DNA of 64,000 nt from Acutalibacteraceae bacterium. GTDB taxonomy: Bacteria > Bacillota > Clostridia > Oscillospirales > Acutalibacteraceae. A model generated the notes under the pieces. That model searched no databases and was not told where the DNA came from. It saw only the letters and a list, made by a program, of their open reading frames with translations. Location of the stretch: contig JAZSQD010000127.1 of the NCBI GenBank assembly GCA_045537815.1, positions 28,949-92,948 on the forward strand. The letters run 5' to 3'. Made by a program: the position numbers and the translations under genes. Every line of letters begins with the position of its first letter. The stretch's first letter is position 1. Positions 18,301 to 53,680 of this stretch are shown here, piece after piece.

Positions 18301-20153
18301 CCGTCAACATCACTGGGAGTTGCCGCAATCTTATCCTTTGCCTCATTCGCACGGTCTGTTATATTCTGACGGTAATCATAAATACCGCCTTCTGTACCAA
18401 CTAAAACAGAATTACCGTTGTTGGGGTTTGTAAACTTAACGTCATACTTATCAACAAAGCCACCGTCAGCAAGCACGATTTCAGGAGTAAGAATAAGAGT
18501 ATCCTTTGTGAAGGTATAGTTGTTGTTTGCTACCTTTTCACCGGTACCGTTATCAATCCATACATTGCGGTTAACATTATATGTGAAAGCACCGCTGGTA
18601 TAAGTTGTATAAGCAGATACAGGCCATTCGATGTCTGCCTGTGTCTGACCGTACTTAACAACCTTCTGGCCGAGGAACTTACCGTCAACATCATAGAACT
18701 TAACGCTGAGATCCTTTGAACACCACCAGCCGTACCATACCTTGTCTGCGCTAATGGTCTTTTCGTTTGCGTCATATTTCGTTCCTGCGTTATAATACTT
18801 TTCAACTGCGCCGTCACCGTCGGAATCTACGGTAACTACCTTGTCGCTTTCTGAAACAACGGCACCTGACATAGCCTTATATGATGTAAAGTCATCATTT
18901 GAACAAGGCTGAGCAAAGTCAGCTGTCTTGTTATAGAACCAGCCTGAGCCTGATGTGGGCTGAGGAGCTGACCAGAATCCGTAGAAGGTATAGCCTTCAG
19001 CTGATGCCTTCTCGTTTGAAGGAGCTGTAAAGCTCTTGCCGTAATATCCTTCTGCTACATATTTGCCTGTGCCGGCAGCACTGAGAGTGTTGCCGCTGCT
19101 ATCCTTAACAGCAGGGTCAAAGGTTGCATCGTTAACGGTACCCTTACCGTCAAAGGTTACTTCATACACAGGATATTTAACGTTGATTGCAGCTGAAGCC
19201 TTTGAAGACTGTGAACCGCCGAAGCCGTCAGATAAGGTATAGGTTCTTACAAGATAGTAATTAGCTGTACCGTTATTGCCGTTAGGCTTACTTGCCTGAA
19301 GGTTAGCCTTAACGATTACATTGTCCTTATCGTTGCCTTCTGCATAGATATCTGCTGCATCATCACCCTCAAGTGCAGAACCGTTGTCAGTAGCTGAAAC
19401 ATGAGTGGTTGTGCTGTCTATGGTGCAATACTTACCGTTATTGATTATATAACTGCTTGCCGCAACACCGTAGTTATCATAAAGTGTATATTTTGAAATA
19501 TCGTAGGTAGTGCCTTTTTTTACATCTGCACCGCCAATCTTGTTAATTTCAACATTGATGGCAGGGTTCTTTCCGCCGGCAGCTGATGCCGTATTGTCAG
19601 TAAAACCGTAGATGTGAGGTCTCGGCCAGGTATAAGTACCCGACCAGTTACCTGATGTGCCTAAATCAGGCTTTTCACCGGTGTTGTAATTAGGATAAAT
19701 TTCACCCTTGTTTGCACCGTTCCAACCTGCATCACCTGTCCAAACCTGTTTACCGTTAATTTTTATCCAGTTAACATCACAGCGGGCCTGGTTATTACCG
19801 CTGCCGCCACCGGTTGTTTCAAGATAAATATAAGTAGGGAAGGCTGATGTTGTAAAGCTTTTGGTATACTCACCCTGTTTGTTGCAGCCCTCTGTTGAGA
19901 AAGAGTTTATGGCAATTTGATTTGCGCTTTGATTTCCTTCCCAACCGTTACCTGTGGTTCTGTACTGAAGGTTACCACTGTTATAGTCATTGTTTGAGAT
20001 GGTAAAGTGAACTTCAACAGTATACTGTGTCTTAACCTCAACATTAGCAGCCTCTGCCTCAGGTGCAAGCCACACCCAACAGGACATAAGCATAAGCACT
20101 GCTAAAAACAGTGACACAGATTTCTTTGCTTGCAATTTTAAATAGTTTTTCAT
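12363..20153 (-). CDS. 2596-aa secreted surface protein with Listeria-Bacteroides-type repeats, Cys-rich modules, a prealbumin-like beta-sandwich and a Cys-flanked amphipathic C-terminal tail
   Basis: Complete ORF with SD AAGGAGG and signal peptide MKNYLKLQAKKSVSLFLAVLMLMSCWVWLAPEAEA. There are many Y-x-F-x-G-W motifs (YTFYGFW, YTFDGWT, YEFQGWY, YVFLGWD, YVFAGWY, YSFAGWV, FEFRGWK, YTFAGWF), typical of Listeria-Bacteroides repeat (Flg_new) domains. H..C...G.....C..C modules lie at about 14930-15580, 13490-13720 and 12790-13010. The segment YTVKATVKDENGNPSANVRVELL...GDYRVYV resembles a carboxypeptidase-regulatory fold. Confidence 0.9.
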   Translation of the reverse strand: MKNYLKLQAKKSVSLFLAVLMLMSCWVWLAPEAEAANVEVKTQYTVEVHFTISNNDYNSGNLQYRTTGNGWEGNQSANQIAINSFSTEGCNKQGEYTKSFTTSAFPTYIYLETTGGGSGNNQARCDVNWIKINGKQVWTGDAGWNGANKGEIYPNYNTGEKPDLGTSGNWSGTYTWPRPHIYGFTDNTASAAGGKNPAINVEINKIGGADVKKGTTYDISKYTLYDNYGVAASSYIINNGKYCTIDSTTTHVSATDNGSALEGDDAADIYAEGNDKDNVIVKANLQASKPNGNNGTANYYLVRTYTLSDGFGGSQSSKASAAINVKYPVYEVTFDGKGTVNDATFDPAVKDSSGNTLSAAGTGKYVAEGYYGKSFTAPSNEKASAEGYTFYGFWSAPQPTSGSGWFYNKTADFAQPCSNDDFTSYKAMSGAVVSESDKVVTVDSDGDGAVEKYYNAGTKYDANEKTISADKVWYGWWCSKDLSVKFYDVDGKFLGQKVVKYGQTQADIEWPVSAYTTYTSGAFTYNVNRNVWIDNGTGEKVANNNYTFTKDTLILTPEIVLADGGFVDKYDVKFTNPNNGNSVLVGTEGGIYDYRQNITDRANEAKDKIAATPSDVDGDLQFSYELLGWSSVVPTTGKNYHVLLEDADFDVNGTAIGLNSDWVVRNDATYYAVYRRHTKTYVVNFNYKDATGADATRQLKVKYGASLVPPTDYVPYTYVTGGFGYTFDGWTYTNKDGDAKLGYAATIPFTNEYISIQEAALDGNADLEPITLTATYGAPVATPYTVTFNYVDGKGADVSKQATVKNEELILPSTVETLTPAENWDHEDQLYTYADQWEIIEGAGAMGVGGAEKKVGDKLYTSELTGFTPTSNVTFKAVYANPVPFFTVTYIDGANTYSERILQGSNVPAWIIEETNEEYVPADYEGEGGTYEFQGWYDQKQVNTDATNGNKITTADKVAGNLTLYSQFKFVPDTFTVKFMNHDGTVQLGAGEYQKGQNIEALVARATVGAQSRASDETYDYVFLGWDKPVPTFCEGYDVTFIAQYKPVYKYYNVKWYNSRLVNDEWVADKTIGEDENGKEVETNLLATTHHTYNSKLYTPAVDNLTCLEAAPEGQNYVFAGWYYNDAEGNAVKYERGIIVTAEMEFYATYTLTNKVYTVTTVVKGDETRYTVASGATAEIPDPQAGYVDAEKHDAFDGWYTDADCTTAFEADTVITADTKIYAKFTEGDHVFPKENSELKTAPTYYAEGEMTKWCSCDKTKTSKTESIDKLTDEEIRTGTMYLGGKFWSSEGEAANITDNDEISIFVNANTDVIITANDTGDVDALYNPSGIGMGVKYIRAFAFPAKYTLTAENYGAAQQLTLDVYVDESEALTNNANFAVKLGDIIVADLDENGEVQYDEEGNIKYKSLESGEAYIIYYYVTDKAGNQLNRKVRTAKFIYDNDAPAFTVEGESNEAAVPTYCGVATVTGIEKDVVLTVNGEVVEVEYEADATTGTYEIEYAEGIDNVIITATDKSGNKYSKKIKVADHSYLLTEQASTCGAAGYKKEVCIICGDVKTDDVYPALDHVWGQPQVTPADCVNNGYVVVKCENCGEEVITEFEEDGVTPAIPALGHVFAKDDNDEIIYTTVTASTCKTNGLAEAYCTECNGELEGGYLTKELELDDKNHEDVTVTEVEADCVNNGYYTKACSCGVTIEHKDHETDPEIYAAKGHGEKAWEVVKEANCYQPGTMVEKCTVCTAITTAETAYGYTEDADANYTYVTRIENEGEENETEVKVTEEIDGKTYYKYYLVPATGEHVKYVTEKVDSVPGTQGYVKYACKTEGCPWTGKKDLDKVEAFTVTFLKEDGTELAKITKDEGEYIANTDVTAPEKAATKENRYSFAGWVEVIKGEDGKETAGATYKLPLEVTKDMTLKASYKATKILYTHQFVVPTTWTETLADGTSDTTVYATLVGAYGDERVPAGTPVFKHKDANEDARLKKLYTFEFRGWKNAAGVLVTDFTVEDSATFTAYFVAVPVEYEVIFYNGSEVIWTTKVDGGAVVEYANIDNKGTEDEADDVLILPGKAYDAEYHYAFSGKWYTDAACEKEYVVEFNADGSIKSGAITEKTRLYAGFTATAHTYAVNTKVGTVVDEANPEVKDGIIQKADCVLPEITAKICSCGDEIEVETKAALGHDAYKKNADGSYVLVDGEKVENGETVTDKDGVAYYVVKCSVCGEELSRNKVSVTVKFENYNGLSLGTKNYQLGEDIVAPTTTPVKPDDNASTYTFAGWFVKGDDTQTIVTVLGKATADITFVAKFTATDKMFKVSYLSYKGDVALYTVEVKYGATLPAYVGKTDEITIIGTDYKDNYTEDGHYVFSGEWDKDATYVVKGDTTVRPVLELEDHNKQTAYTDPTCTTAGGQSITCTGCAYHASVNATQPALGHAWGNGVVTTPPIYETQTPGVMTYTCSRCGVTKTEEIPGDSYTVKATVKDENGNPSANVRVELLRKQADGAYTYLTHKETDANGVVIFSGLEPGDYRVYVTSTKTHYDTTVNEDGSVAGGDITAQPENNPVDESCKCSCHKDNFWGILYRLIQKIIKFFAGKPSCCACPDSRI

Positions 20154-21930: not shown

Positions 21931-22019
21931 TGACTACTTACTACTTGCTACTGACTACTCGGACGGCCAATGGCCGCCCCTACTCCCTATTCCCTAATCC
22001 CTAATCCCTGATCCCTGAT
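21931..22019 (-). repeat. Composite repeat: (TGACTAC-like)x4, a REP hairpin, then (CCCTNNT)x6
   Basis: Heptamers tgactac ttactac ttgctac tgactac at 21931-21958. REP at 21960-21983 (reverse complement GTAGGGGCGGCCATTGGCCGTCCG). Heptamers ccctact ccctatt ccctaat ccctaat ccctgat ccctgat at 21978-22019. This is the inverted partner of 24574-24663. Confidence 0.9.
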
Positions 22020-24573: not shown

Positions 24574-24950
24574 ATTAGGGACCAGGGATTAGAGATTAGT
24601 TGTAAGGGTCAAGGGAGTAGGGGCGGCCATTGGCCGTCCGAGTAGTCAGTAGTCAGTAGTCAGGGAAACGCCCGTTGGGCGTTTAATGGTGTGAGCCGAT
24701 TTATGCACTTAAAATAAAACCTCTCCCGTAGGGGAGGGCCTGTGTGCCCTCCCGGACAACTTGACGGGTAGGTGTATTTAACGGTTAACTCGGACGGTCG
24801 CCGTGGGCGTCGACCGCTACAATCTACCACTTAGATGCTGCACAAAACTTACCTCTGCGGAAAGAAACATAAATCGGTCAACGTAGTTACCCCGCGACCG
24901 CACCTATTCCCTAGTCCCTAATCCCTAGTCCCTAGTCCCAAGCCCCTGAC
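24574..24950. mobile_element. 377-bp non-coding composite element bounded by inverted G-rich/C-rich heptamer arrays (MITE/BIME-like)
   Basis: Left end: attaggg-type heptamers (24574-24623), REP GTAGGGGCGGCCATTGGCCGTCCG (24617-24640) and (AGTAGTC)x3 (24641-24663). The interior carries hairpin aacgccc-gtt-gggcgtt (24667-83), REP GTAGGGGAGGGCctgtgtGCCCTCCC (24728-53) and an inverted REP (24791-24820). Right end: ccctagt ccctaat ccctagt ccctagt (24909-24950). No ORF is present. Confidence 0.75.
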
Positions 24951-26434: not shown

Positions 26435-26899
26435 GAGGAAGAAGTAGTCAGTAGCCAGTAGTCAGTAGTCAGGATTCTAGTTTAACTATAAGTGTGTTGA
26501 GCATTCTCGCAACTTCTTTGCATAAATCAAAAGCTCTATCCGCTTGTTCCTGCGTTATAAAACCCTGCCGTATACAAATTATCAATTGTGTTTCAATCTC
26601 AGCTCTTGAGCTTCTTGCCACAGACAAAAACTGACTGTACTCTTTTTTTGATTTTCTCTCATAGCCTTCTGCAATATTTGACGGGATAGAAACTGCTGCT
26701 CTTCTCATCTGATCGGAAAGAGCGAACATTTCTTCTTTTGGCAAAAGTTTTACAATCTTATAAGTTTCGTCCACTAAATCCATAGACCTCTGCCAGACTA
26801 TCAAGTCTTTGCAACCGTTTATATATCTTCACCTCGTCTCAAAATGCACCGTAGGTGCATCTCTGACTACTGACTACTGACTACTGACTACTCTTCCTC
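26435..26899. mobile_element. Inverted-repeat-flanked cassette carrying a four-helix-bundle gene, inserted in the glgD-glgA spacer
   Basis: IR-L is gaggaagaagtagtcagtagccagtagtcagtagtcag (26435-26471). The reverse complement of IR-R (26863-26899) is agaggaagagtagtcagtagtcagtagtcagtagtcag. By hand alignment the two match apart from one indel and about two substitutions. The cassette lies 15 nt after the glgD stop and about 20 nt before the glgA SD. Confidence 0.8.
26469..26804 (-). CDS. Four-helix-bundle protein (23S rRNA intervening-sequence protein / Avd-like family)
   Basis: Carries the family motifs (DL)IVWQRSMDLV...LPKEE...L.DQMRRAAVSIPSNIAEGYER.SKKEY.QFL.VARSS.AEIETQL. The only available start is a TTG inside the conserved DLIVWQ motif, with no clear SD. 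The N-terminus is therefore shorter than the family norm and the gene may be decaying. Confidence 0.75.
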   Translation of the reverse strand: MIVWQRSMDLVDETYKIVKLLPKEEMFALSDQMRRAAVSIPSNIAEGYERKSKKEYSQFLSVARSSRAEIETQLIICIRQGFITQEQADRAFDLCKEVARMLNTLIVKLES

Positions 26900-29284: not shown

Positions 29285-29480
29285 TAAGTGAGTTTTTCAG
29301 GGGATTAGGTAACCCTCTCCGTCAGATGCCTTGCATCTGCCACCTCTCCCTGAGGGAGAGGCAAGAGTAAAGCAACTTGGTAAGAAGTATCTATCTTGGC
29401 TCTCCCTTTGGGAGAGCTGTCACGAAGTGACTGAGAGGGTATCCCTTGCTACTTGCTACTTACTACTTGCTACTTGCTAC
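29285..29480. repeat. Composite intergenic element: degenerate gggattagg, a multi-hairpin CTCTCCC/GGGAGAG module, then (TTGCTAC)x5
   Basis: Closing stem accctctc (29312-19) / gagagggt (29433-40) encloses four hairpins at 29323-39, 29343-61, 29399-417 and 29419-31. The heptamer array spans 29446-29480. Confidence 0.8.
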
Positions 29481-31368
29481 TTTTCTTAGGCTTATACTTA
29501 AGCAGAGTGAAGCTGAAGCCGGGCAAATCAAGAGTGATGCTGTTATCGAAGCCGTGCATAGGCACCTTCTTTGAGGTCGCTCTCTTACTGCCCTTGCCCT
29601 CGCCGCCGAATTCCTCGGCATCAGAGGAAAGGATAACCTCGTATACACCCTCTCTTTCCACACCGAAGGAGTATTTCTCCCTCATAACCGGCGTGAGATT
29701 ACATACTGCCACAAGCTCGTTGCCTTTTTTGTCTTTTCTTGCGAATGCGATAACACTGTTCTGATTGTCGTCACTCACAAGCCACTTGAAGCCCTCCCAG
29801 CTGTAATCAATTTCCCAGAAGGCGGGATTTTTAAGATAGATGTGATTGAGCTTCTTTACATAAGCCTTGAGCTGACGGTGCTTTTCATAGCCGAGAAGCA
29901 GCCAGTCAAGCTCACTGTCATACTTCCATTCGATAAACTGACCGAATTCCTGACCCATAAAGGTAAGCTTCTTACCCGGGTGAGCCATAAGGTAGCCGAG
30001 GAATGAACGTATGCCGCTGAATTTTTCCTCATATTCTCCCGGCATCTTGCCGATAAGTGAGCATTTTCCGTGAACAACCTCATCGTGTGAAATGGGAAGG
30101 ATAAAGTTTTCGGAAAAAGCATAGAAGAAGGAGAAGGTGAGAAGATTATGGTTATACTTTCTTGAAAGACCGTCCATCGAGAAATATCTCAGGGCGTCAT
30201 TCATCCAGCCCATATTCCATTTGAAGTTGAAGCCGAGGCCGCCGATATCCGTGGGCTTTGTCACAAGAGGCCAGGCAGTGCTTTCCTCGGCAATCATCAG
30301 GGGATTTTTAAACTCGCGGAAGATACCTGAGTTAAGCTTCCTGAGAAATTCAACAGCCTCAAGATTTTCGTTGCCGCCGTACTTGTTGGCAATCCATTCG
30401 CCGTCCTTTCTGCCGTAGTCAAGATAAAGCATTGAAGCAACTGCGTCAACACGAAGTCCGTCAATGTGATATTTATCCATCCAGAAGGCGGCCGATGAGG
30501 TAAGGAAGGAAATAACCTCGTTTCTGCCGAAGTCGAATATCTTTGTGCCCCAATCCTTATGCTCGCCCTTTTTCGGGTCCTTGTATTCGTAGCAGGCTTC
30601 ACCGTCAAAGTCAGCAAGTCCGTGTTCATCTCTCGGGAAGTGGGCAGGCACCCAGTCGAGAATAACGGAAATACCGTTCTGATGACACTTATCAACAAAG
30701 TACATAAGGTCGTCGGGAGTACCGTAGCGGGAGGTTGCGGCAAAGTAGCCGATTACCTGATATCCCCATGAGCCGTCGAAGGGATATTCGCTAAGGGGCA
30801 TAAGCTCAATGTGAGTGTAGCCCATATCCTTGACGTAGGGTACAAGACTTTCGGCAAGATCTCTGTAAGAATAAGGGTTGCCGTCCTCGTGAATTTTCCA
30901 CGAGCCTGCGTGCACCTCATAGATATTCATCGGAGACTCGTAAACGTTTATATTCGCCTTTTCTTTTTGCCATTTGCTGTCCTTCCACTTGTATGATCCC
31001 AGCTCATAAATCTTTGAGGCGGTCTCAGGCCTTGTCTGTGAGTGGAAGGCATAGGGGTCGCACTTGGCTGTTTTTTTGCCCGAGGGTGCCGTAACGAGGA
31101 ATTTGTAGCAGTCATACTGCTTTACTCCTTCAAGATAGCATTCCCACATTCCCGCATCGTTGATTTTTGTCATGGTGCCCTTTGATTCATCCCAGCCGTT
31201 AAAGTCACCTATAACGCTGACCGCCGCGGCGTGGGGAGCCCATACACGGAAAGAGAAAAGCTTATCGGTAACCCTGTGAGCGCCCATGTATTCGTAGGCC
31301 TTCATATTGTTGCCCTGATGAAACAGATAAAGGGCAACATCGTCACCTTTGGGTTTCTTTTCTGTCAT
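29470..31368 (-). CDS. glgB: 1,4-alpha-glucan branching enzyme
   Basis: 632 aa with a GH13 catalytic core ([28 protein letters not shown]). Its last codons, AGT AGC AAG TAG, lie inside the AGTAGCA heptamer array. Confidence 0.95.
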
Positions 31369-31667: not shown

Positions 31668-34151
31668 TTAATCAAAAAACATGCGTCCGTCTTCAGAATG
31701 GTTAAGCGCTTTAAAGAATTCATCCTCTGCAATAAGGCTGAGGAATGCTTGATGATCTCTTTCGATTCTTCCGCCCTGGAAAATACCGTAAATGTAGGGA
31801 TATCCTGTTACAGGCTCGTCGCTTGAATACATATATTCAAAGTTCTTTGCAAAGAAGACTCTTGCTCTCTCGTCGCCCTGCTCATTGATGAAATAAATTG
31901 AAACGGTGTCAAAGAAGCAGTTTTCAAAATCAATTGTCTCATAAAGCTTCTTTGAAGCAGCAACCATGTTCTCAGGAAGCTTTTCGTCAACGGCGAAGTC
32001 TAGACCTATTCTGAGATTTCCGCCGATTTCTTCGATAAATCTTACAGGGTAGGCTTCTTCTATTATCTTGCGGGTTTCTTCCTTAAGGAAAACATCTCCG
32101 AATTCCTTGTCTTCCTCGCTGAAGGTGTAGCCCTCAAGAGTGAGATAAATATCAAGACTGTTTTCATATATCGCCAGAGCAAGAGCAGGAAGCCAGCTGC
32201 TGTTTTCCTCAGCACCCTCAAGACAGGTGAAAACAAAGCTGTCACCCTCAACCGCCTTTGCTCTGAGAATGGGCATTGTCGAGGTTTTATCGACTATATA
32301 GATTTCATCCTTGCCCTCTGCCTGTGCCGCCTTGCAGAGATTTGCAAAAAGAGTCTTGTCACCTTCGGTCATGGCAGTGACCTTAAGTGCGGTAACACCG
32401 TCCGCCTCAGTAAGCTCAACATATTTATCCTTGCTGTAGGATATGGGAACAGAAGCCTGGGTATAGCCTGCGATAAAGGAAATTCCCGTTGAGCAAAGCA
32501 CTGAAAGAACACCGTTGTTGAGCTTGTCGGGTGACATCTTTACAACAATGAGATAGGGATCATTGATTCCGTAGCCGAGGGCGTAGGGCTCACCGAAGGT
32601 ATCAAGTCGGTTTTTAAGGCTTGTTAAGGTGTCAAGCCATTTGCCTTCGGATACGTTACCGTATTCTGAGCCACGGTAGCTCACGGAAATGGTTTCACCC
32701 TTGATTTCACTGTAGTTTTTCTGATTTGCACCGAAAAGTGCGCCCTCTTCAGACTTTTCCCAGTGGGCTGCAATATCTATATTTACTATAAGACTTGCGG
32801 CTGGATGCTCTGTGGTCATGTTGTTGATAAGCACCTCGTTGAGAGTGGGATGTCTGTCATCGTTGAGAATATAATATACGCCCTGCTTGTCTGCCTTGTA
32901 GGTGTCAAAATAGTAATAGCTGTCCGTCATTTCCACCTTATCCTGAGCAAACACAAGCTCATCGCCGAAAATCTCTATTTCTTCTTTGTTTTTCTTAAGG
33001 TAATCTGACTTGAGCACTACCTCTATGTATTCATAATTTTCCTTGTCCTGTACATTGTCTTCGTTAATCTCAGGCTCCCCGGGTATTTTACCCTTGAGAA
33101 GCTTAACCGACTCGATGTTTTCGGGGGCTACCTCTATCTGAGCTACCTCGGGAGCTTCGCTTGACCAACGGTTAGTTGTAAGATAAAGCCTTGCGGCTCT
33201 TGAAACATAGCACTTGATCATATCGGTTGCGGTAAGCTCACCGAAAAGCTCAAAGGGAACGATAAGGTCAACCGTATCACCCTCAACCTTTATTGAATAC
33301 CTCTGCCCGTCAGCAATAATATCCATTCTGTCCTTTACGGTTTCAGAGGCGGTCTTGAATTCTGCGGCGGTCATATTTTCGGGTGCGCTGAGAACGATAT
33401 GATATTTATACTCCATATCTGAGTACCAGAGATAATTATCGAGAGCAACCGCACCTGCAGAAACACCGATAACACCGACGAAGGCAAGGGCAACGATGCC
33501 GCCTGCCGTGGTTTTATTAATTCTAAACCCCTTAAGAGCTTTTTTTCTGAAAACAAACAGAGGGATAAAGCCGATTACAGCCGCAATAACAGCCCCGATA
33601 AGCTTAACCGCCATACCGAAGGACGAAAATACAACAAGATAAGCGGCGGCGGCAGCGCAAAGCCAGAGCCAGATAACAGAAAGAGTAAGCTTAAGACCGT
33701 AAAGCGGTTTTTTCGGCTTCTTATCATCTTCTTCGTCATCCTCATCTTCTCTATCAGGCTTAGGCACAGCCTTTTCAATATCGCTTACAAGCTTTGCCAC
33801 TCTGGAAGCATCGTACTGGAACATGCAGTGAATTGTGGCAAGATAATACTTGATGGTATCGCTGTATTCAGAATCGTCAAGCCTTATGGGGATAACGGGC
33901 ACCTGATTTTCAATAGCAAGCTGGATTTCACGGCTGACCTGACCCGAATGGTTTGAGTTGCCGCTTGAAAGGAAAAGAAAAACCGAGGAGTTCATAATAG
34001 CCTTTGAAATTTCACCCGCCCATTCCTTACCGTAGGGAATATCTCTGGGTGCAATCCAGCATTTCATATCGTTACTTTCAAGAGCGTCACAAATTATGGT
34101 TGCCGTTTTCGAATCCTTGCTCGAATGACTGATAAAAATTCTTTTCTCCAT
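31668..34151 (-). CDS. Membrane-anchored TIR-domain protein: N-terminal TIR, acidic linker, three predicted TM helices and a roughly 590-aa C-terminal ectodomain
   Basis: The N-terminus IFISHSSKDSKTATIICDALESNDMKCWIAPRDIPYGKEWAGEISKAIMNSSVFLFLSSGNSNHSGQVSREIQLAIE fits the bacterial TIR_2 pattern (FISxS...W...G..W...I.....S..S..S.W...E), with the candidate catalytic Glu at residue 75. Hydrophobic segments are LKLTLSVIWLWLCAAAAAYLVVF, MAVKLIGAVIAAVIGFIPLFVF and GGIVALAFVGVIGVSAGAVAL. Confidence 0.8.
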   Translation of the reverse strand: MEKRIFISHSSKDSKTATIICDALESNDMKCWIAPRDIPYGKEWAGEISKAIMNSSVFLFLSSGNSNHSGQVSREIQLAIENQVPVIPIRLDDSEYSDTIKYYLATIHCMFQYDASRVAKLVSDIEKAVPKPDREDEDDEEDDKKPKKPLYGLKLTLSVIWLWLCAAAAAYLVVFSSFGMAVKLIGAVIAAVIGFIPLFVFRKKALKGFRINKTTAGGIVALAFVGVIGVSAGAVALDNYLWYSDMEYKYHIVLSAPENMTAAEFKTASETVKDRMDIIADGQRYSIKVEGDTVDLIVPFELFGELTATDMIKCYVSRAARLYLTTNRWSSEAPEVAQIEVAPENIESVKLLKGKIPGEPEINEDNVQDKENYEYIEVVLKSDYLKKNKEEIEIFGDELVFAQDKVEMTDSYYYFDTYKADKQGVYYILNDDRHPTLNEVLINNMTTEHPAASLIVNIDIAAHWEKSEEGALFGANQKNYSEIKGETISVSYRGSEYGNVSEGKWLDTLTSLKNRLDTFGEPYALGYGINDPYLIVVKMSPDKLNNGVLSVLCSTGISFIAGYTQASVPISYSKDKYVELTEADGVTALKVTAMTEGDKTLFANLCKAAQAEGKDEIYIVDKTSTMPILRAKAVEGDSFVFTCLEGAEENSSWLPALALAIYENSLDIYLTLEGYTFSEEDKEFGDVFLKEETRKIIEEAYPVRFIEEIGGNLRIGLDFAVDEKLPENMVAASKKLYETIDFENCFFDTVSIYFINEQGDERARVFFAKNFEYMYSSDEPVTGYPYIYGIFQGGRIERDHQAFLSLIAEDEFFKALNHSEDGRMFFD

Positions 34152-34185: not shown

Positions 34186-34214
34186 ATTATATCACAGTCC
34201 TTCAGGTTTGACAA
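34186..34214 (-). promoter_or_regulatory. Putative sigma-A promoter of the TIR gene
   Basis: On the minus strand: TTGTCA (34214-09), a 17-nt spacer, then TGtgaTATAAT (extended -10; TATAAT at 34191-86). Confidence 0.55.
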
Positions 34215-34225
34215 GTGCTTGAGGA

Positions 34226-34464
34226 GGGATTAGGGATTAGGGATTAGTAGCAAAGGTAAGGGTTTTGATATTAGTAGTCAGTAGCCAGTAGCCAGTAGTC
34301 AGGGGAACGCCCGTCGGGCGTTTAATGGCGTAAGCCAATTCATGCCTCCGAGCAAAAATGATACGGTAGGGACACGGCTCGCCGTGTCCGCAAACCTGAC
34401 CGATAAATATATTTAATTTAACACGGTAGGGGCGTCCGTTGTGTCGTCCGAGTAGTCAGTAGTA
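34226..34464 (+). repeat. Composite repeat: (GGGATTA)x3, (AGTAGTC/AGTAGCC)x4, a conserved backbone, two REP hairpins and a second AGTAGTC stub
   Basis: Coordinates are gggattagggattagggattag at 34226-50 and the AGTAGTC array at 34273-34300. The backbone 34294-34346 matches 24657-24709 with 7 mismatches in 53 nt (hand alignment). REPs are GTAGGGACACGGCtcGCCGTGTCC (34366-90) and GTAGGGGCGTCCGttgtgtCGTCCG (34426-50). The stub agtagtcagtagta is at 34451-64. Confidence 0.85.
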
Positions 34465-34470
34465 AGGAAC

Positions 34471-34540
34471 TAATGGCGTGAGCCAATTCATGCCATAGGC
34501 AATTCATGACAAGGTCAATTCATGGCGTAGCCAATTCATT
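34471..34540 (+). repeat. Mini-hairpin array A: four 11-12-nt hairpins separated by ATTCA
   Basis: Hairpins are tggc-gtga-gcca (34474-85), tgcc-ata-ggca (34491-501), tgac-aag-gtca (34507-17) and tggc-gta-gcca (34523-33). Each is followed by attca. Confidence 0.9.
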
Positions 34541-34576
34541 CCATACAATATTATTGAGGGACCGGCAGCCAACAAC

Positions 34577-34659
34577 TGACCGCAGGTCAATAACACTATG
34601 CGAAGCGTAATATCACTGCATAGCAATAAAACTGCCGAGTGTCCTTGCGGACACTCGGC
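34577..34659 (-). repeat. Mini-hairpin array C (short copy) ending in the MFS gene terminator hairpin
   Basis: Order on the plus strand: tgacc-gca-ggtca, ATAACACT, atgc-gaa-gcgt, AATATCAC, tgc-ata-gca, ATAAAACT, gccgagtgtcc-ttgc-ggacactcggc (34634-59). This is near-identical to 38691-38788. Confidence 0.9.
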
Positions 34660-34676: not shown

Positions 34677-36605
34677 TCAGTCTGCGTTTTCTTCTTCAGC
34701 CTTGTCGATGATTTCCTGAGGTACTGCCTCACCGTGCTTAACAAACATAATGAGAATAATTGCAAGCAGGAACATTACCGGACTGTAATAGAACAGCGAC
34801 ATATAGGTTCCGGCAAACATTCTTATAAAGCCGTAAACGATGGGAGAAGCAATCTGTGCTGAGAAGGTAGCGGTGTAGTAGTAGCCTGTGAAGGTGCCGA
34901 CCTTTTCAATACCGCCGATTTCAAGAACGAGGGGAAGGGTGTTAACGGTGATGAACATATTTGCTGCACCGCCGAGAATAAGAACGGGATAGATAAGAAC
35001 TCTGAGAATTGCGGTAACACTGTTGACCGTGTCAACGATTGCGCCGAGAGCAACCTCAAAGGAGTCTGTTTCTGTGCCGAGGATATTATTTGCAACTGCA
35101 ACAAGGTCAGTATAAACGCCCTCACCCTTGGTTTCGATAAGATAAGCGTCATACTTTTCATATGCGGCAACATTGATTACTGCTGCATCAGCATTTACGT
35201 CTGATTCGGTTACTGCGGCTGCAGATGCTGCAGCGGTGCCTTCGCCGTTCTTATATGCGAGATAGCCTTCGATTGAAAGAACCTCGTCGTCTGAAAGCTT
35301 TGTGCCGTTGAGCTGAGCCTCATTACTTCTGTCTGCATTGTATTCGTTGATATTTTCATCAATAACGATATAAGCATTGTTAACGGTAACATAATCCTTG
35401 ATTGCAAGGCCCTTGCTGCCGAGCATGCCTACGAATACGCCAAAGAATACAACAAAAGCTGCAAGGAAGACCGAAAGGCCGGCAATGATGGTCTTCTTTC
35501 TTCCGATCTTCTTGCCCATTTTACCTGCAGGGATAGCGGCAACACCTGAGCATACTGCAAAGATGAGCATGATGAAGGTTGCCTCTGAGGTAATCATGTG
35601 AAGGATTTCCTGAGCGAAGAGTGAGAAGAAGGTTGTAATTGCATTTGATGCGCAGAAAAGGAAGAAGAGTGTGCCGAGCATAAATGCAAGACTTTTTCTT
35701 TCGCCCTTTGAGAGCTTAATAGCCTTAAGCTCAGCTTTTTTCTGCTTTGCAGCTTCCTTCTGAGCTTTTTTGAGTGCCTTCTGGTCTGCGTACTGATTTG
35801 CATCACCCTTGATTCGAATGCTTGTGTCTTCTTCCTTAACAAAGAAGAGAAGCACGAGCATACCGATGATCATAACAAGTGAACCTACGATGAATACATA
35901 GGGGAATGATACTGTTTCGTCAGCCTTGATTTCTGCCTTGCTGTAGCCTGCAAAAAGAGTACAAAGTGCAATACCTATTGTGCCTGCAACCATACCTACA
36001 GCTGAACCGATACCACCCATAAGGTTGATGATTGCATTACCTTCACTGCGAAGCTCCGGAGGAGTAAGGTCAGGCATAAGAGCAACAACAGGGGCTCTCC
36101 ACAGTGACATTGAGAAAACAAAGAGAATAACCACCAGCATTGTAAGAGGAAGCTGGAGTGCGCCGCTTGTGTTAAGCGCAACAATGGGAATAAGAGCAAA
36201 AAGAAGAGCCGAAATCGGAGCGCAGGCAACAATGAAAGGACGGCGCTTACCGAGCTTTGAATGGCAATTATCTGAAAGCTTACCGAAAGTGGGCTGGAAA
36301 ATAACACCGAAGATGTTATCGAAGGTCATAATGATACCGATGAAAAGAGGTACCAGTGAGAAGCCGCCTGATGCGGTAATTGTACTCTGACCCTGAGCCT
36401 CTGCAAACTCGCCTATCCAGGGAACAGCACTTGCAAGCTTGGCACTGAGGTTTGTAACCAGGTCACTTTCCGAAAGTATCTTGTTGAGAATTTTTGTAAT
36501 ATAGGGGTCATAAATTGCCCATGCGATTGATGTTGCCAGGAAACCAAAACCTGTAAGTATGGTCTTTGGCACATTCAGCTTCTGAACATTCTGTTGTTTT
36601 GCCAT
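34677..36605 (-). CDS. MFS-type transporter (glycoside/cation symporter-like) with a charged central loop and a roughly 145-aa soluble insert
   Basis: 642 aa with multiple hydrophobic helices. The central loop is KKAQKEAAKQKKAELKAIKLSKGERK. A non-hydrophobic insert, KDYVTVNNAYIVIDEN...DSFEVALGAIVDTV, lies between late TM helices at about 34973-35402. Confidence 0.7.
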   Translation of the reverse strand: MAKQQNVQKLNVPKTILTGFGFLATSIAWAIYDPYITKILNKILSESDLVTNLSAKLASAVPWIGEFAEAQGQSTITASGGFSLVPLFIGIIMTFDNIFGVIFQPTFGKLSDNCHSKLGKRRPFIVACAPISALLFALIPIVALNTSGALQLPLTMLVVILFVFSMSLWRAPVVALMPDLTPPELRSEGNAIINLMGGIGSAVGMVAGTIGIALCTLFAGYSKAEIKADETVSFPYVFIVGSLVMIIGMLVLLFFVKEEDTSIRIKGDANQYADQKALKKAQKEAAKQKKAELKAIKLSKGERKSLAFMLGTLFFLFCASNAITTFFSLFAQEILHMITSEATFIMLIFAVCSGVAAIPAGKMGKKIGRKKTIIAGLSVFLAAFVVFFGVFVGMLGSKGLAIKDYVTVNNAYIVIDENINEYNADRSNEAQLNGTKLSDDEVLSIEGYLAYKNGEGTAAASAAAVTESDVNADAAVINVAAYEKYDAYLIETKGEGVYTDLVAVANNILGTETDSFEVALGAIVDTVNSVTAILRVLIYPVLILGGAANMFITVNTLPLVLEIGGIEKVGTFTGYYYTATFSAQIASPIVYGFIRMFAGTYMSLFYYSPVMFLLAIILIMFVKHGEAVPQEIIDKAEEENAD

Positions 36606-36829: not shown

Positions 36830-38461
36830 ATGAAATTCTTAAAAAAAGTACTTACTCCCCTCATAGCGGTACTCCTTGTTTTTGCTATGACATTTTCAGT
36901 TTTCGCTTCTGTAGGCACTCAGGTAAATGCCCGTGACCTTTTTGTTGCAAACAAAGCAGAACGAGTTTTCTTCGATGCTCTCGATGTTGCCGCCAACGCT
37001 CTTGTCAAAGCAATTGCAAGCTTCTTCCCTACACCCAGATATTGGTTTGACAAAGAAGATGTTCCCGGCTTTATGGAAGGCACTGCCGAATTTCTTGACA
37101 AATCTCAGGCAGGCGCAACATGGTCACTGGGCTATGACTCAAGAAGTCTTCTGCCCGAAAACAAAGAAGATGTTATCGGCAAATATTATGTTGCAGGCTC
37201 AATCGGCATCGACGGCAAGCTCGCTACAGGTGTTGAAGATGACCTTCTTGTAAGAACCGTTGCCCTTAACGATTCAACAGGCAGAGGCACTGCAGTTTTC
37301 ACCGTTCTTGACTCCTACGGTCTTTCACTTGCAGATGTGCGCGAAATCAGAACACGTCTTGCTGACTGGTCAAAGGAAAACGGCATCAACTCCATCACCG
37401 TTTCCGTTCTTCATCAGCACAGCGCAATTGACACCTTCGGTATGAACGGCAATATTTTCCGTATGGTATTTCTCAACCCTGCGCGCACCTTCTTCGGCAT
37501 TGAAACAGAAAACGGCAAAAATGATGAATACATGGAAAATCTCTTCAACAAAACTGTTGACTCAATCAAAGCCGCCTTTGCCGATATGACAGAGGGCGAC
37601 CTTTTCTACGGTACCGCAGATGCACAAAAATATATCTACGACAAGCGTCAGCCCTATATAAATGACCCCAACTTCAACCGTTTCCGTTTTGTACCCGATG
37701 ACGGCTCAGAGGAAACCTGGATTGTTTCCTCACAGATTCACTGCGTAGGCAACGGTGCAGCAGGAACTCTCGTAACAGGCGACTATCCTTACTATGCAGA
37801 GCAGGAAATCAATGCTCACGGCGCAAATGTACTTTTCATTATGGGCGCAGAACAGTCTAACACCCAGGAAAAAGACAAGACCACAGTTATCGACTACACT
37901 CCCAACGAGACAGGCATTGAAAACACAGTTGGCTACGGCAAATCAATTGCAAGAGATTTAATTGCAATCACCGAGGAAACAGAGGTTACTCCCCTTCTCA
38001 ACATCAGATATAAGGAAACTCTCCTTCCCCTGACAAACTCAATTCTTATGCTTGCAGGTAAAGCAAGTCTCTTTGAAAATATCATAAGAATCCAGAAGAC
38101 AGACTACTTCATTCTCACAGAAATCGGTTATATGGAAATGGGCGATAACCTTGCCTTTGCCATTGTACCCGGCGAGATTGCTCCCGAGCTTGCATACGGC
38201 GGTTGCCTGGGCGCTGACTACTCATGGTCAGGCGAAGACTGGCAGTACCCCTCAATGCAGGAAATCGTAACTGCCTCAGGCAACGACAGAGACCTTCACG
38301 TTATCGGCCTTGCCAATGACCAGATAGGCTACATCGTACCCGACAACGACTATATGTCAATGCTTCACGAAGACAGCAAGAGCATCGAGTTTGTTTCTCT
38401 GGGCAAAAACACTGCTTCAAAGCTTATTATGGCATTTGAAGATGTAGTTAATAACAAATAA
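36830..38461 (+). CDS. Secreted hydrolase, possibly related to the neutral/alkaline ceramidase N-terminal domain
   Basis: Has a signal peptide, MKFLKKVLTPLIAVLLVFAMTFSVFA. DDLLVRTVALNDSTGRGTAVFTVLDSYG...ITVSVLHQHSAIDTFG resembles the ceramidase-type L.VRA..l.d..g.r.a.v..D / ..tHtHs.p pattern. The family assignment is tentative. Confidence 0.4.
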   Translation: MKFLKKVLTPLIAVLLVFAMTFSVFASVGTQVNARDLFVANKAERVFFDALDVAANALVKAIASFFPTPRYWFDKEDVPGFMEGTAEFLDKSQAGATWSLGYDSRSLLPENKEDVIGKYYVAGSIGIDGKLATGVEDDLLVRTVALNDSTGRGTAVFTVLDSYGLSLADVREIRTRLADWSKENGINSITVSVLHQHSAIDTFGMNGNIFRMVFLNPARTFFGIETENGKNDEYMENLFNKTVDSIKAAFADMTEGDLFYGTADAQKYIYDKRQPYINDPNFNRFRFVPDDGSEETWIVSSQIHCVGNGAAGTLVTGDYPYYAEQEINAHGANVLFIMGAEQSNTQEKDKTTVIDYTPNETGIENTVGYGKSIARDLIAITEETEVTPLLNIRYKETLLPLTNSILMLAGKASLFENIIRIQKTDYFILTEIGYMEMGDNLAFAIVPGEIAPELAYGGCLGADYSWSGEDWQYPSMQEIVTASGNDRDLHVIGLANDQIGYIVPDNDYMSMLHEDSKSIEFVSLGKNTASKLIMAFEDVVNNK

Positions 38462-38519
38462 TATCACTTAAATGATAAACGCACCCGCCTAAATCGGGCA
38501 AGGTTGCTAAGGACAGAAA

Positions 38520-38559
38520 AGGGGTAATACGGTTAAAAACGTATTACCTCTGTTTTTTT
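38520..38559 (+). terminator. Terminator of the 36830-38461 gene
   Basis: ggtaatacg-gttaaaaa-cgtattacc followed by tctgttttttt. Confidence 0.8.
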
Positions 38560-38590
38560 CTTCTGTGGTAAAAAATGATTATGATAGTTT

Positions 38591-38788
38591 AAGTGATATT
38601 CCGACTGTGTCGGAGTGGTATTATTGCCACAGGCAATAGTAATATTGAAACTTTCAGTTTCAGTTTTATTTTATTCGCAAAAAACTTGCGAAGCAAATAA
38701 CACTATGCGAAGCATAATATCACTGCAAAGCAATAAAACTCGCCGCAAGGCGAATAAAACTGCCGAGTGTCCCGTAAGGACACTCGGC
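38591..38788. repeat. Mini-hairpin array C: eight small hairpins with AGTNNTATT-type spacers, mirrored between convergent genes
   Basis: The left arm reads on the plus strand: ccgac-tgt-gtcgg, gcc-aca-ggc and gaa-act-ttc, each followed by AGTGGTATTATT / AATAGTAATATT / AGTTTCAGTTTTATTTTATT. The centre is cgcaa-aaaac-ttgcg. The right arm reads on the minus strand: atgc-gaa-gcat, tgc-aaa-gca, cgcc-gcaa-ggcg and the 11-bp hairpin at 38762-88, each followed on the minus strand by AGTGTTATT / GTGATATT / AGTTTTAT / AGTTTTATT. Confidence 0.9.
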
Positions 38789-38811
38789 TAAGCGGTTGCG
38801 TATTATTTTGA

Positions 38812-39234
38812 TTATGAGACTACCGGCATTGTTTCCTGAGGCAGAATGTTATAAACGGTGCCGTCAGTAGCCGCCATACTTATAGGCACATCCGGCAAAA
38901 TCAGATGAATGGTGCTTATAAAGTTATTGCTGTTTTCACCGGGAAAACCGGTTACAAGAGTAATAGGCTTTATTTTTGCAGTATGGGCGCTGACCGTGAG
39001 AATGGGATCGTCACTGAAATAAATAGCCATTTCTCCGCCGTTGTTTTTAGCTGTCTGCCATAGGTTTTCCAATATATCCGGTTCGATTTTATATTCCCCC
39101 TGCTCAAAGGGCAGGACTGATATTACTTCCAATTCTGCGCCGTGTTTTACGGCAATTGCTTTACCTGCTTTCACAAGCTGCTTTGAAGACTCCTGCGGTG
39201 TTATACAAACAAGTACAGTTTTAGCCTTTTTCAT
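38812..39234 (-). CDS. Universal stress protein (Usp/KdpD-Usp-like) domain protein
   Basis: 140 aa with the alpha/beta pattern VLVCITPQESSKQLVKAGKAIAVKHGAELEVISV...ITLVTGFPG. Confidence 0.6.
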   Translation of the reverse strand: MKKAKTVLVCITPQESSKQLVKAGKAIAVKHGAELEVISVLPFEQGEYKIEPDILENLWQTAKNNGGEMAIYFSDDPILTVSAHTAKIKPITLVTGFPGENSNNFISTIHLILPDVPISMAATDGTVYNILPQETMPVVS

Positions 39235-51142: not shown

Positions 51143-52057
51143 ATGGAAAACAATTCAAATAACTCATGGAGCTTCTTAAAAGATGATGTTATGAAGGGCC
51201 TTGCAATTGCTCTTGTTGTCGTCTTTCTCTTCTCAACAGGTAACATTCTCGGTTCTCTTATGAATGTTAAGACAACAAGCACAGACGTTGATGCAGAGGT
51301 TACAACAACTGCACCTACAACTGCTCCCACAACAGCTCCTACAACCGCTCCCACAACAGCGCCTACACAGGCTCCCACAGACGCTCCCTCAGGCGGCGAC
51401 ACAACAGCTCCCACACAGGCTCCCACAGATGCTCCCTCAACAGGCGCACCTCAGTCAAAGGCTGAAATCATTGCTTACTTCAATGAAAGCGCAGACAAGG
51501 TTAAGACAGATGCAACAAAGGTTGTAAGAAACTACGAAGACCTTCGTCACAATGCTGATAAGCTTGTTCTTCCCAAAGCTCTTCAGTCAATCGGTGAAGG
51601 CCTTATCTCAAGCTTCCTCAAGAAGAACGAAACTCCCGTTGAATATGCAACAAACGCTGATATCGTTGCTTCATATCCCGTTGCAGGTCAAACATGGTCA
51701 AGTAAGCTCACAGAAGCTGATGTTGCTGAAGCTACCTGCAATGACAACGGCACTGAATATGAAATCATGATTAAGCTCAACACATCAACAGACCCCGCTG
51801 CAGGCACAGGCGCAGCAGCAGCTTTATCAACAATTAAGACTGAAGATGTTATGGATGCAGCAGGCTTCGTTGTTCAGAGCTTCTCCGCTGAATATTATGA
51901 TTCTGTAATCAAGTGCAAGATTGACAAGGCTACAGGCCGCACCACATGGTCAAACTACACACTTCCCATCCTTCTCAGAGTTGAAGCTAAGCTCTTCGGC
52001 ACACTCCATGCAGAAGTTGGTATGACCTTTGAACACGACTACACAATTACATACTAA
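51143..52057 (+). CDS. Membrane-anchored extracellular protein with a (T/Q)APT-rich linker
   Basis: ATG 51143 follows AAAGGAAAGGAAA. The N-terminal anchor is GLAIALVVVFLFSTGNILGSL. The linker is TTAPTTAPTTAPTTAPTTAPTQAPTDAP..TTAPTQAPTDAP, then a globular domain of unknown family. Confidence 0.65.
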   Translation: MENNSNNSWSFLKDDVMKGLAIALVVVFLFSTGNILGSLMNVKTTSTDVDAEVTTTAPTTAPTTAPTTAPTTAPTQAPTDAPSGGDTTAPTQAPTDAPSTGAPQSKAEIIAYFNESADKVKTDATKVVRNYEDLRHNADKLVLPKALQSIGEGLISSFLKKNETPVEYATNADIVASYPVAGQTWSSKLTEADVAEATCNDNGTEYEIMIKLNTSTDPAAGTGAAAALSTIKTEDVMDAAGFVVQSFSAEYYDSVIKCKIDKATGRTTWSNYTLPILLRVEAKLFGTLHAEVGMTFEHDYTITY

Positions 52058-53679: not shown

Positions 53680-53680
53680 T

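Follow-up and report, generated by a model that had tools for sequence, protein, structure and literature searches.

At positions 34,471 to 34,540 of a 64,000-nucleotide stretch of Acutalibacteraceae DNA (contig JAZSQD010000127.1; the whole stretch is called the window below), four short hairpins with different stems follow one another, joined each time by the same ATTCA. This arrangement, here called array A, raises the question of where an array with a constant linker and changing hairpins comes from, and whether the DNA or an RNA is its functional form. Comparison with related arrays from other genomes gave a plain answer to the first part: array A is a solitary, canonical-length copy of a dispersed non-coding intergenic repeat family found in Oscillospirales-type gut Clostridia and some phages. 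The second part is answered below in graded terms, from a strand-specific constraint on the loops of the family.

Array A is built of four perfect hairpins and an invariant linker

The four perfect 4-bp hairpins with invariant ATTCA at window positions 34474-34538 are real and non-random. The plus strand of 34471-34540 reads TAA TGGCgtgaGCCA ATTCA TGCCataGGCA ATTCA TGACaagGTCA ATTCA TGGCgtaGCCA ATTCA TT, continuing with TTCC after the terminal ATTCA (34534-38), and the fuller form of the linker is CAATTCATG. The parts of the array and its 5' edge are as follows.

34451..34470, plus strand: heptamer remnant AGTAGTC AGTAGTA AGGAAC, 5' of array A
34471..34475, plus strand: degenerate first linker TAATG, overlapping the first two bases of hairpin 1
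34474..34485, plus strand: hairpin 1, TGGC-gtga-GCCA; contains GCGTGAGC, which fits the DNA mini-hairpin consensus GCGNNAGC
34486..34490, plus strand: linker ATTCA, copy 1; with the flanking stem ends, CAATTCATG
34491..34501, plus strand: hairpin 2, TGCC-ata-GGCA; a TGCC..GGCA stem is second in the arrays of many genomes
34502..34506, plus strand: linker ATTCA, copy 2
34507..34517, plus strand: hairpin 3, TGAC-aag-GTCA; its homologue in a relative (L105, below) is TGAT-gta-ATCA
34518..34522, plus strand: linker ATTCA, copy 3
34523..34533, plus strand: hairpin 4, TGGC-gta-GCCA; contains GCGTAGC, which fits the DNA mini-hairpin consensus GCGNAGC
34534..34540, plus strand: terminal linker ATTCATT

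An earlier note on this DNA had described the hairpins, the constant ATTCA linker and the compensatory differences between stems, and these are borne out by the plus-strand sequence, by repeat finding and by shuffling. Tandem Repeats Finder reports 34484-34545 with a period of 16 and 3.9 copies, a separate repeat search found four in-register copies at 16-nt spacing, and a generic hairpin-chain finder returned exactly 34474-34533. The pattern ATTCATGNCNNNGNCAATTCA has three matches in the window, every one inside array A; its mean number in shuffled sequence was 0.05, and none of 100 shuffles reached three. Exact occurrences of the full linker CAATTCATG number five in 64 kb, four of them within the spacer that holds array A. 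In the stems, the outer T-A and G-C pairs are constant, and the inner pairs vary between hairpins and are always complementary.

Folded as DNA, array A takes the four mini-hairpins as its minimum-energy structure (-10.9 kcal/mol); folded as RNA, its minimum-energy structure is another pairing. The z-scores of the DNA fold are weak for the array alone (-1.55 on the plus strand, -1.02 on the minus strand), so the significance of the array rests on pattern statistics and on the comparison of copies, not on energy. Alignment with the 34273 copy in the window and with the L105 array further indicated that the GC leader hairpin of other copies is missing here: GGGAACGCCC..GGGCGTT has been deleted, leaving GGAAC joined to TAATG.

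A dispersed repeat family in gut Clostridia and phages

We scanned one genome per GTDB species with the pattern ATTCAT-N9-10-AATTCAT-N9-10-AATTCA and obtained at least 118 loci, where about 17 would be expected by chance (an estimate from pattern length and database size). About half of the matches listed (~60) are hairpin arrays of the array-A design, and the rest are unrelated simple tandem repeats from many phyla. The hairpin arrays among the matches listed lie almost all in metagenome-assembled genomes (MAGs) of gut Clostridia, from ruminant and human guts; the carrier taxa there are Acutalibacteraceae, Oscillospiraceae, Ruminococcus, Faecousia, Oscillibacter, Christensenella and unclassified 'Clostridia bacterium' bins. 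The earlier note had reckoned with a pattern unique to this locus as a sign of neutral slippage; the pattern is present in dozens of Clostridia genomes, and some 8-kb pieces hold three or four arrays. The family was not described in the literature retrieved by searches for the linker sequence, for Gut-1, for REP in Clostridia and for heptamers.

The viral database IMG/VR also has arrays, some of them in true phage DNA beside terminase and portal genes. On phage contigs, arrays of array-A type (L134, 9595-9735; L124, five arrays in 5.1 kb) occupy the space between the terminase gene and the portal gene and also neighbour other genes of the phage. Of 80 phage loci that carry related portal genes, only the three closest (89-100% identity) have arrays, indicating that the arrays track the host lineage and not the gene. 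A generic search for chains of three hairpins was noisy: phage DNA totalling 583 kb gave 66 chains, and in almost all of them the linker was not constant; the signal is thus the constant linker and not the hairpin chain. An exact search of JGI metagenomes for the window-type array with any third-hairpin core gave 0 matches.

For statistics we used two sets. Set 1, from the genome and viral-contig scans, holds 81 distinct arrays in 55 loci, and set 2, from an independent metagenome-contig scan, holds 85 further distinct arrays in 69 loci. A satellite with the unit CAATTCATGGTCACTGTACTTTACC and long arrays without compact hairpins (L222, L228, L230, L260, L263, L288; WLWD/WLWI contigs) were excluded. 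The module that emerges consists of a leader hairpin, then (A/T)CCTTAATG or TTCATG or TAATG, then hairpins 1 to 4 joined by CAATTCATG, and the end CAATTCAT(T/C). The family consensus of the first linker is (C/T)TTAATG or TTCATG, and in about 80 arrays the last bases of the 5' flank are TAATG, TCATG or CAATG. At the other end, the terminal ATTCA is followed by T in 71 of 77 family arrays, and the next base is mostly T or C. Three inter-linker units, that is four hairpins, are the commonest length in both sets (60/81 arrays in set 1, 50/85 in set 2). Units start with TG in 181 of 200 cases and end with CA in 184 of 200; stems are 3-8 bp long, most commonly 4 bp in set 1 and 6 bp in set 2.

The order of hairpins is also shared. 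Many lineages have in common [variable long hairpin]-TGCC..GGCA-TGGC..GCCA-[variable long hairpin], and the Acutalibacteraceae arrays have in common a penultimate TGAT..ATCA hairpin. These shared orders across genomes indicate that the arrays are homologous and did not grow independently. Hairpins of comparable length at all four positions were found only in array A and in L105, and we therefore used positional unit statistics and no four-hairpin covariance model.

Stems and loops are constrained on one strand

The perfect stems amount to 998 Watson-Crick pairs with 62 distinct 5' arms. Complementarity of the two inner pairs was found in 96% of 11-nt units, versus 26% (maximum 42.5%) when the 3' partners were shuffled, and internal stem mismatches comprise three G:T and no A:C. 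Repeats of the same stem within an array are avoided (4/81, where 13.4 are expected under random reassortment; p ~0.001). The loops, read on the strand that carries ATTCA, fall into few classes.

Triloops GNA versus TNC: 74 versus 0 in set 1; 90 versus 3 in set 2, from metagenomes
Tetraloops GNNA versus TNNC: 31 versus 0 in set 1; 54 versus 0 in set 2
Loops CTTG versus CAAG: 10 versus 1 in set 1; 3 versus 0 in set 2
C-G closing pair: 152/185 in set 1; 199/230 in set 2

GNA and GNNA loops together account for 105 of the 185 hairpins of set 1 and 144 of the 230 of set 2, whereas their reverse-complement classes account for 0 and 3. Since a function at the level of the duplex could not produce this asymmetry, one strand must be read on its own. 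These results indicate that the hairpins are under strand-specific constraint.

The tetraloops point to the kind of molecule. GNYA loops are as frequent as GNRA loops (11 versus 15 in one count, 28 versus 26 in set 2), which fits the GNNA rule of DNA and not the GNRA rule of RNA. When all 64 GCNNNGC sequences were tested, only GNA triloops gave an extraordinarily stable DNA mini-hairpin, and GNNA tetraloops behave similarly in DNA (PMC13037366). The melting temperature of d(GCGNAGC) is 70-76 C and that of r(GCGAAAGC) is 39 C (PMC13037366); these published stabilities cover the core motif only, and nearest-neighbour models lack the corresponding bonuses.

The four-hairpin array is older than the divergence from a sister genome

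According to the earlier note, a founding unit with one hairpin stands at two other places in the window, and array A is a local expansion of it whose stems then diversified. The unit is indeed found without mismatch at 34323-34346 on the plus strand, besides 34471-34494 in array A itself. The copy at 24684-24707 has decayed: four mismatches, all substitutions, were counted, and it was not recovered at up to three mismatches. In their wider context the two copies read as follows.

34302..34346, plus strand: truncated sister copy; leader AACGCCC-gtc-GGGCGTT, TAATG, hairpin 1, CAATTCATG, then TGCC only (the 5' arm of hairpin 2)
24641..24707, plus strand: decayed sister copy; (AGTAGTC)x3, leader hairpin, then TAATGGTGTGAGCCGATTTATGCA; hairpin broken, linker mutated

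The expansion itself is opposed by the canonical length of array A, by an array in a sister genome and by the remnant in the supposed founder. The closest available relative is the JAZNIH MAG (Acutalibacteraceae), whose orthologue of the major facilitator superfamily (MFS) transporter next to array A has 93% amino-acid identity; exact-protein look-ups had no identical MFS or TIR protein on record, and JAZNIH is the closest comparable strain. Its array L105 reads TGGCgtaaGCCA-TGCCataGGCA-TGATgtaATCA-TGGCgtaGCCA. It lies on a different contig, at a locus without similarity to the window, and is accompanied by the same heptamers and the GGGAACGCCC..GGGCGTT leader. Hairpins 1, 2 and 4 match those of array A, one loop base of hairpin 1 being different, and hairpin 3 has TGAT..ATCA where the window has TGAC..GTCA, a compensatory change of T-A to C-G. 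The four-hairpin array is common to both genomes and is therefore older than their split. At 34323-34346, the supposed founder ends ...CAATTCATGCC, keeping TGCC with unrelated sequence after it, and is thus a truncated array. The direction of length change at this site is loss, not gain. Length also varies elsewhere in the family: two copies in L084 differ by one hairpin, and the array in L008 has six.

The comparison with a close relative that the earlier note called for had a divided outcome. The orthologous spacer between the MFS and TIR genes of the closest relative has no array and holds quite different repeats, and the family persists elsewhere in that relative as L105. Individual copies thus turn over fast, with insertions short-lived at about 90% nucleotide identity, while the family persists.

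Arrays behave as dispersed intergenic elements beside unrelated genes

In spacers between tandem genes, arrays lie in sense orientation 17 times and in antisense 15 times, and no bias with GC skew or with the majority-gene strand was found. In 11 of 75 cases a same-strand terminator comes after the array, a frequency no higher than in the other three configurations. Convergent gene pairs flank arrays more often than divergent ones (15 versus 5). The 104 flanking open reading frames (ORFs) match 133 Pfam families (E <= 1e-5), none of which occurs in more than two ORFs, and the flanking genes listed encode housekeeping enzymes, for example PGK, TIM, GlnA, PurD, IlvD and RhaA.

Where two arrays stand within 250 nt of each other, their orientation is inverted in 33 of 35 cases, 23 of them head-to-head and 10 tail-to-tail. 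Some of these pairs make up composites of 200-260 bp, found again almost unaltered between different flanking sequences (twice in L108, and in L040, L048 and L090), and near-identical pairs of copies in different flanks were also seen in L084, L018, L032 and L070, two in each. As a single strand, the head-to-head element folds into a ladder in which the arm linkers CATGAATTG pair with CAATTCATG and the mini-hairpins branch off; its z-score is -5.3 as DNA and -4.8 as RNA. An all-against-all BLAST of the sampled loci for orthologous filled and empty sites gave no useful pair except the window and L001. Taken together, the housekeeping flanks, the convergent bias, the inverted neighbours and the recurring composites amount to behaviour of the type known from REP, BIME and REPIN elements, the repetitive extragenic palindromes of Proteobacteria.

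A possible single-stranded DNA element and its rivals

The reading that we favour, with belief and doubt almost in balance and doubt slightly ahead, is that the module is a REP/BIME-like element read in single-stranded form, most likely as DNA. DNA is preferred on account of the GNA/GNNA rule, the frequency of GNYA loops, the near absence of wobble pairs and an orientation indifferent to transcription and replication. The palindromes of the ATTCA strand would snap into very stable C-GNA-G or C-GNNA-G mini-hairpins. The identical A/T-rich linkers might thereby be left exposed as repeated single-stranded sites for a putative trans-acting protein, which would copy, cut or bind the element; a nuclease or transposase with specificity for single-stranded DNA (ssDNA), comparable to the RAYTs of REPs, is a candidate. 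Different stems in one array may keep folding local and prevent deletion by slippage. Copies would be gained, truncated and lost quickly, with the design maintained.

Several observations tell against this proposal. No protein partner acting in trans was identified, and no transposase or HUH-nuclease gene was found among the 104 flanking ORFs; nor was any target-site duplication or clean empty site found. The 4-bp stems are thermodynamically marginal, and nearest-neighbour energies give no clear preference for the ATTCA strand or for DNA relative to RNA. GNRA and CUUG loops, being stable, suit RNA too. Perfect Watson-Crick stems could also arise without selection, by templated correction of palindromes. 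For several arrays the distance to a following ribosome-binding site is 6-25 nt, so that they must be transcribed in operons, and the closest family, Gut-1, was classed as RNA on covariation (PMC2864571). The genomes examined are MAG fragments, in which copy number and orientation relative to replication are known only roughly.

The main rival is a role as RNA, which we consider unlikely but serious. The module would then be structured RNA of the Gut-1 type, transcribed in neighbouring mRNAs or as a small RNA of its own, and its hairpins, linked by AAUUCAU, would block exonucleases, mark sites of RNase processing or titrate an RNA-binding protein. Gut-1 (RF01706) consists of three covarying-stem hairpins joined by GUGAAAU and was rated in 2010 as likely RNA, with no function assigned (PMC2864571). 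The design of the arrays agrees with it; two arrays near array A match its model at 36.3 and 48.3 bits, and array-A-type arrays of L124 match weakly at 31.5 bits (E 0.009) and 25.3 bits (E 0.33). These L124 matches, however, are on the strand opposite ATTCA, and the Gut-1 model matches the strand opposite the one with GNA loops. GNRA and CUUG are classic stable RNA loops, yet triloops dominate the family and GNYA is as common as GNRA, and G-U pairs are almost absent. Many arrays stand inside transcripts, just 5' of a ribosome-binding site and start codon or just after a stop codon, and the head-to-head element folds well as RNA. Against this, orientation in tandem-gene spacers is random in spite of the strict strand specificity of the loops, the arrays lack a consistent terminator on their own strand, no promoter is predicted at the window copy, and the window array prefers another RNA fold.

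An iteron-like array of double-stranded DNA, with CAATTCATG bound in duplex form by a regulator or a nucleoid protein and with palindromes that are incidental spacers or dimer sites, would account for a 9-bp motif that occurs four to five times at regular 16-bp spacing in the window, for palindromic TGNC-N3-GNCA units that resemble the sites of dimeric proteins and for the position of array A in an untranscribed spacer upstream of a promoter. We judge it improbable: since stem length differs (3-8 bp), the spacing shifts between 14 and 25 bp, from array to array and inside single arrays, leaving no helical phasing; the strong strand asymmetry of the loops would be meaningless for duplex DNA; complementarity is conserved and the sequences of the palindromes are not; and arrays occur beside unrelated genes and in phages. 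The scenario of the earlier note, in which a one-hairpin founder was duplicated in place by neutral slippage and the stems then drifted, is largely refuted, and we regard it as very improbable. It agrees with the tandem units and their 16-nt period, with the gain and loss of units between the L084 copies and with the empty orthologous spacer of the closest relative. It is opposed by the matching array at another locus of the sister genome, by four hairpins being the commonest family length and by the part of hairpin 2 kept in the supposed founder. Moreover, drift cannot give 96% complementarity or loops restricted to GNA and GNNA over more than 400 hairpins.

These findings bear on organisms that are abundant, mostly uncultured and poorly understood in genome architecture, the gut Oscillospirales. 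The array family appears to be among their commonest non-coding elements (about one per 15 kb, in a sample selected for arrays) and reaches their phages too. The statistical argument suggests that its active form may be ssDNA made up of the most stable known DNA hairpins. A cognate protein, if there is one, would have a new, tool-like specificity for a short single-stranded linker framed by arbitrary hairpins, and the fast intergenic turnover in these genomes would also be explained. In practice, the arrays are strain-variable markers and are likely to cause trouble in assembly and PCR.

Surroundings of array A and other repeats in the window

The spacer of array A is 525 bp long and lies between two minus-strand genes. 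The features of this spacer and of three further arrays of the window are listed here.

34677-36605, minus strand: MFS transporter gene, flanking the spacer of array A
31668-34151, minus strand: gene for an 827-aa TIR-domain protein, with N-terminal TIR_2 (E 1.4e-19)
34634..34659, minus strand: intrinsic terminator of the MFS gene, an 11-bp stem then AGTTTTATTG
34186..34214, minus strand: strong predicted promoter-like site of the TIR gene, TTGTCA-17-TATAAT, with TG before the second hexamer
34570..34634, minus strand: neighbouring mini-hairpin array of another linker class (Gut-1 36.3 bits, E 1e-5)
38692-38762, minus strand: Gut-1-like array (48.3 bits)
38600-38662, plus strand: inverted partner arm of the 38692-38762 array, with TCCGAC.tgt.GTCGGA, TATTGCC.aca.GGCAATA and TGAAACT.ttc.AGTTTCA
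53679-53766, plus strand: array of a third linker class, four hairpins, with linkers TATATCAT and (T)ATATCAT(G/T)
21933-22016, 24641-24663, 24903-24947, 26443-26472, 26863-26892, 29445-29482, 34225-34302: heptamer sites

Array A lies between the terminator of the MFS gene and the promoter-like site of the TIR gene, with its ATTCA strand antisense to both genes, and no plus-strand promoter is predicted in the spacer. The spacer also has tandem heptamers (AGGGATT, AGTAGYC) and GC hairpins. The TIR protein has no Pfam match besides TIR_2 and adjoins the MFS gene in the relative L001 too; it is possibly a defence gene. At the orthologous place L001 has other heptamers, GGAATCG and CCGAATT. In another relative (L002, 6990-7383), tandem repeats of about 120 nt, as judged by eye, lie 3' of the MFS orthologue; they are rich in GC hairpins (GGTGCAACTGC..TAGCC..GGGGGAAGGTGGC..) and belong to a different repeat family in a similar spacer.

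The array at 34570-34634, read on the plus strand, runs in the same direction as array A and is 30 nt away. Like the array at 38692-38762, it stands directly 3' of a strong terminator hairpin of a minus-strand gene. The plus-strand linkers of these two arrays are A/T-rich: ATAACAC, ATATCAC and ATAAAAC. In the partner arm at 38600-38662 the hairpins are joined by GTGGTAT and GTAATAT, and this arm is inverted relative to 38692-38762, so that the spacer 38461-38812 holds a two-armed element. The third-class array at 53679-53766 starts where the gene at 52192-53679 has its stop codon, and a terminator-like hairpin follows near 53805-53830.

Heptamers recur elsewhere in the window, which has a Firmicute-type glgP-glgA-(IVP)-glgD-glgC-glgB cluster. 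Tandem heptamers (AGTAGTC, AGGGATT/CCCTAAT, CCTAGTC, CTTGCTA) are present in nearly all spacers of the cluster. An 81-nt inverted repeat (21937-22017 / 24583-24663, 85% complementary), composed of (AGGGATT)n, the hairpin GGGGCGGCCATTGGCCGTCC and (AGTAGTC)n, flanks the entire glgP gene outside its terminator. A 30-nt inverted repeat of AGTAGTC heptamers (26443-26472 / 26863-26892, 97% complementary) flanks a 111-aa gene of the 23S-rRNA-IVP / bAvd-like family (26469-26804), which has glgA and glgD on either side and resembles an inserted cassette. The window further contains a very large ORF of 2596 aa at 12363-20153 on the minus strand, and nested tandem repeats of 12, 24 and 48 nt (ACAACAGCTCCT...) at 51305-51441, probably a low-complexity coding repeat.

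Comparison with known systems

Several classes of element were considered for array A and rejected. Miniature inverted-repeat transposable elements do not fit, as the composites of about 260 bp (L108, L040, L048, L090) end in unrelated hairpins and have no flank duplication. CRISPR repeats are identical and 23-50 nt long, have unique spacers of about the same length and mostly stand near cas genes; here the constant part is 5-9 nt, the variable parts are 9-20-nt palindromes and the units are four only, and array A has no CRISPR match. Tandem intrinsic terminators are rejected in view of the lack of a T tract in ATTCA/TGAAT, the sole terminator-like site of the spacer being 34634-34659. A coding repeat is excluded by the 16-nt period, which is not a multiple of 3, and a cis-regulator of the TIR gene by the position of the array upstream of the promoter on the other strand and by a family that is not gene-specific.

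Among Rfam families, array A matches none at threshold, and none even at E up to 10. Gut-1 is nevertheless the closest in design: it too has about three or four short covarying hairpins and a conserved A/U-rich linker, comes from uncultured gut bacteria and lies 3' of a gene and its terminator, often with two inverted arms. In the Gut-1 seed alignment the order is stop codon, terminator, then array, and at least one seed sequence has an inverted second arm. Read on the strand opposite the Rfam orientation, Gut-1 has the loops GAA and GCAA, closed by C-G pairs, and so follows the loop rule of array A. The linkers differ, CAATTCATG in array A (AUGAAUU on the Gut-1 strand) versus GUGAAAU or GUGAUAU in Gut-1, as do the outer pairs, TG...CA with both pairs Watson-Crick versus AU...GU with a U-G wobble. 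Gut-1 was reported only from human gut metagenomes (PMC2864571) and described as one arm and as RNA, whereas the array-A family occurs in named Clostridia MAGs and in phages; a literature search found no later paper on Gut-1. The gathering score of Gut-1 is 50 bits, below which both window arrays fall, and L040 has a full match at 68.4 bits. From these sequence comparisons, we place array A outside RF01706, as a sister family of Gut-1 that shares one design with it. The orphan motif, unexplained since 2010, is thereby tied to a broader design and to named host lineages.

On the strand with GNA loops, the linkers of all classes fit roughly AWWTCAY. It is conceivable, though we think it rather doubtful, that array A, Gut-1 and the other linker classes of the window form one superfamily with linkers of about this form, acting as ssDNA through Hirao-type hairpins that serve a dedicated binding protein or enzyme of gut Clostridia and their phages. 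In that case both the strand and the molecule under which Gut-1 is filed would be wrong, and Bacillota would have a REP/RAYT-like system with a new recognition logic, a constant linker with freely varying hairpins.

The heptamers offer a lead only. Abundant intergenic direct repeats of heptamers without known function occur in Beggiatoaceae and cyanobacteria, according to the abstract of PMC4679880, and the arrays of the window and its closest relatives are likewise attached to heptamers, AGTAGTC and AGGGATT. Both the organisms and the heptamer sequences differ, and the abstract mentions no hairpin arrays with a constant linker (PMC4679880).

In their genomic behaviour the arrays most resemble REP, BIME and REPIN elements. 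They share with these the many extragenic copies between unrelated housekeeping genes, with 3' ends and convergent spacers favoured, and the mosaics with conserved non-palindromic linkers and usually inverted neighbours. Like REPs, they are strand-specific, consistent with recognition as ssDNA (PMC3333891, PMC3116915). REPs are 20-40 nt long, with one conserved palindrome per family and a GTAG or CGTC tag (PMC3733652). The palindromes of the arrays, in contrast, are 9-20 nt long, perfect and all different, carry no GTAG or CGTC tag, and leave the linker as the conserved part. Units within an arm are direct and not alternating as in BIMEs, inversion being a matter of whole arrays (33/35). No RAYT-like gene is linked to the arrays (none among the 104 flanking ORFs, on MAG fragments), and the host phylum is Bacillota.

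At the level of the single hairpin, the closest counterpart is the DNA mini-hairpin of Hirao and colleagues, d(GCGNAGC) or d(GCGNNAGC) (PMC13037366), which is nuclease-resistant and very stable in vitro. It is present exactly in hairpins 1 (GCGTGAGC) and 4 (GCGTAGC) of array A, and the array family is dominated by the corresponding C-GNA-G and C-GNNA-G forms. Two of the four window hairpins fit the rule, whereas hairpins 2 and 3 (loops ATA and AAG) do not. The published work concerns single hairpins, in single-strand origins of phages and plasmids and in engineered aptamers (PMC13037366); here the same motif is set out in genome-wide arrays.

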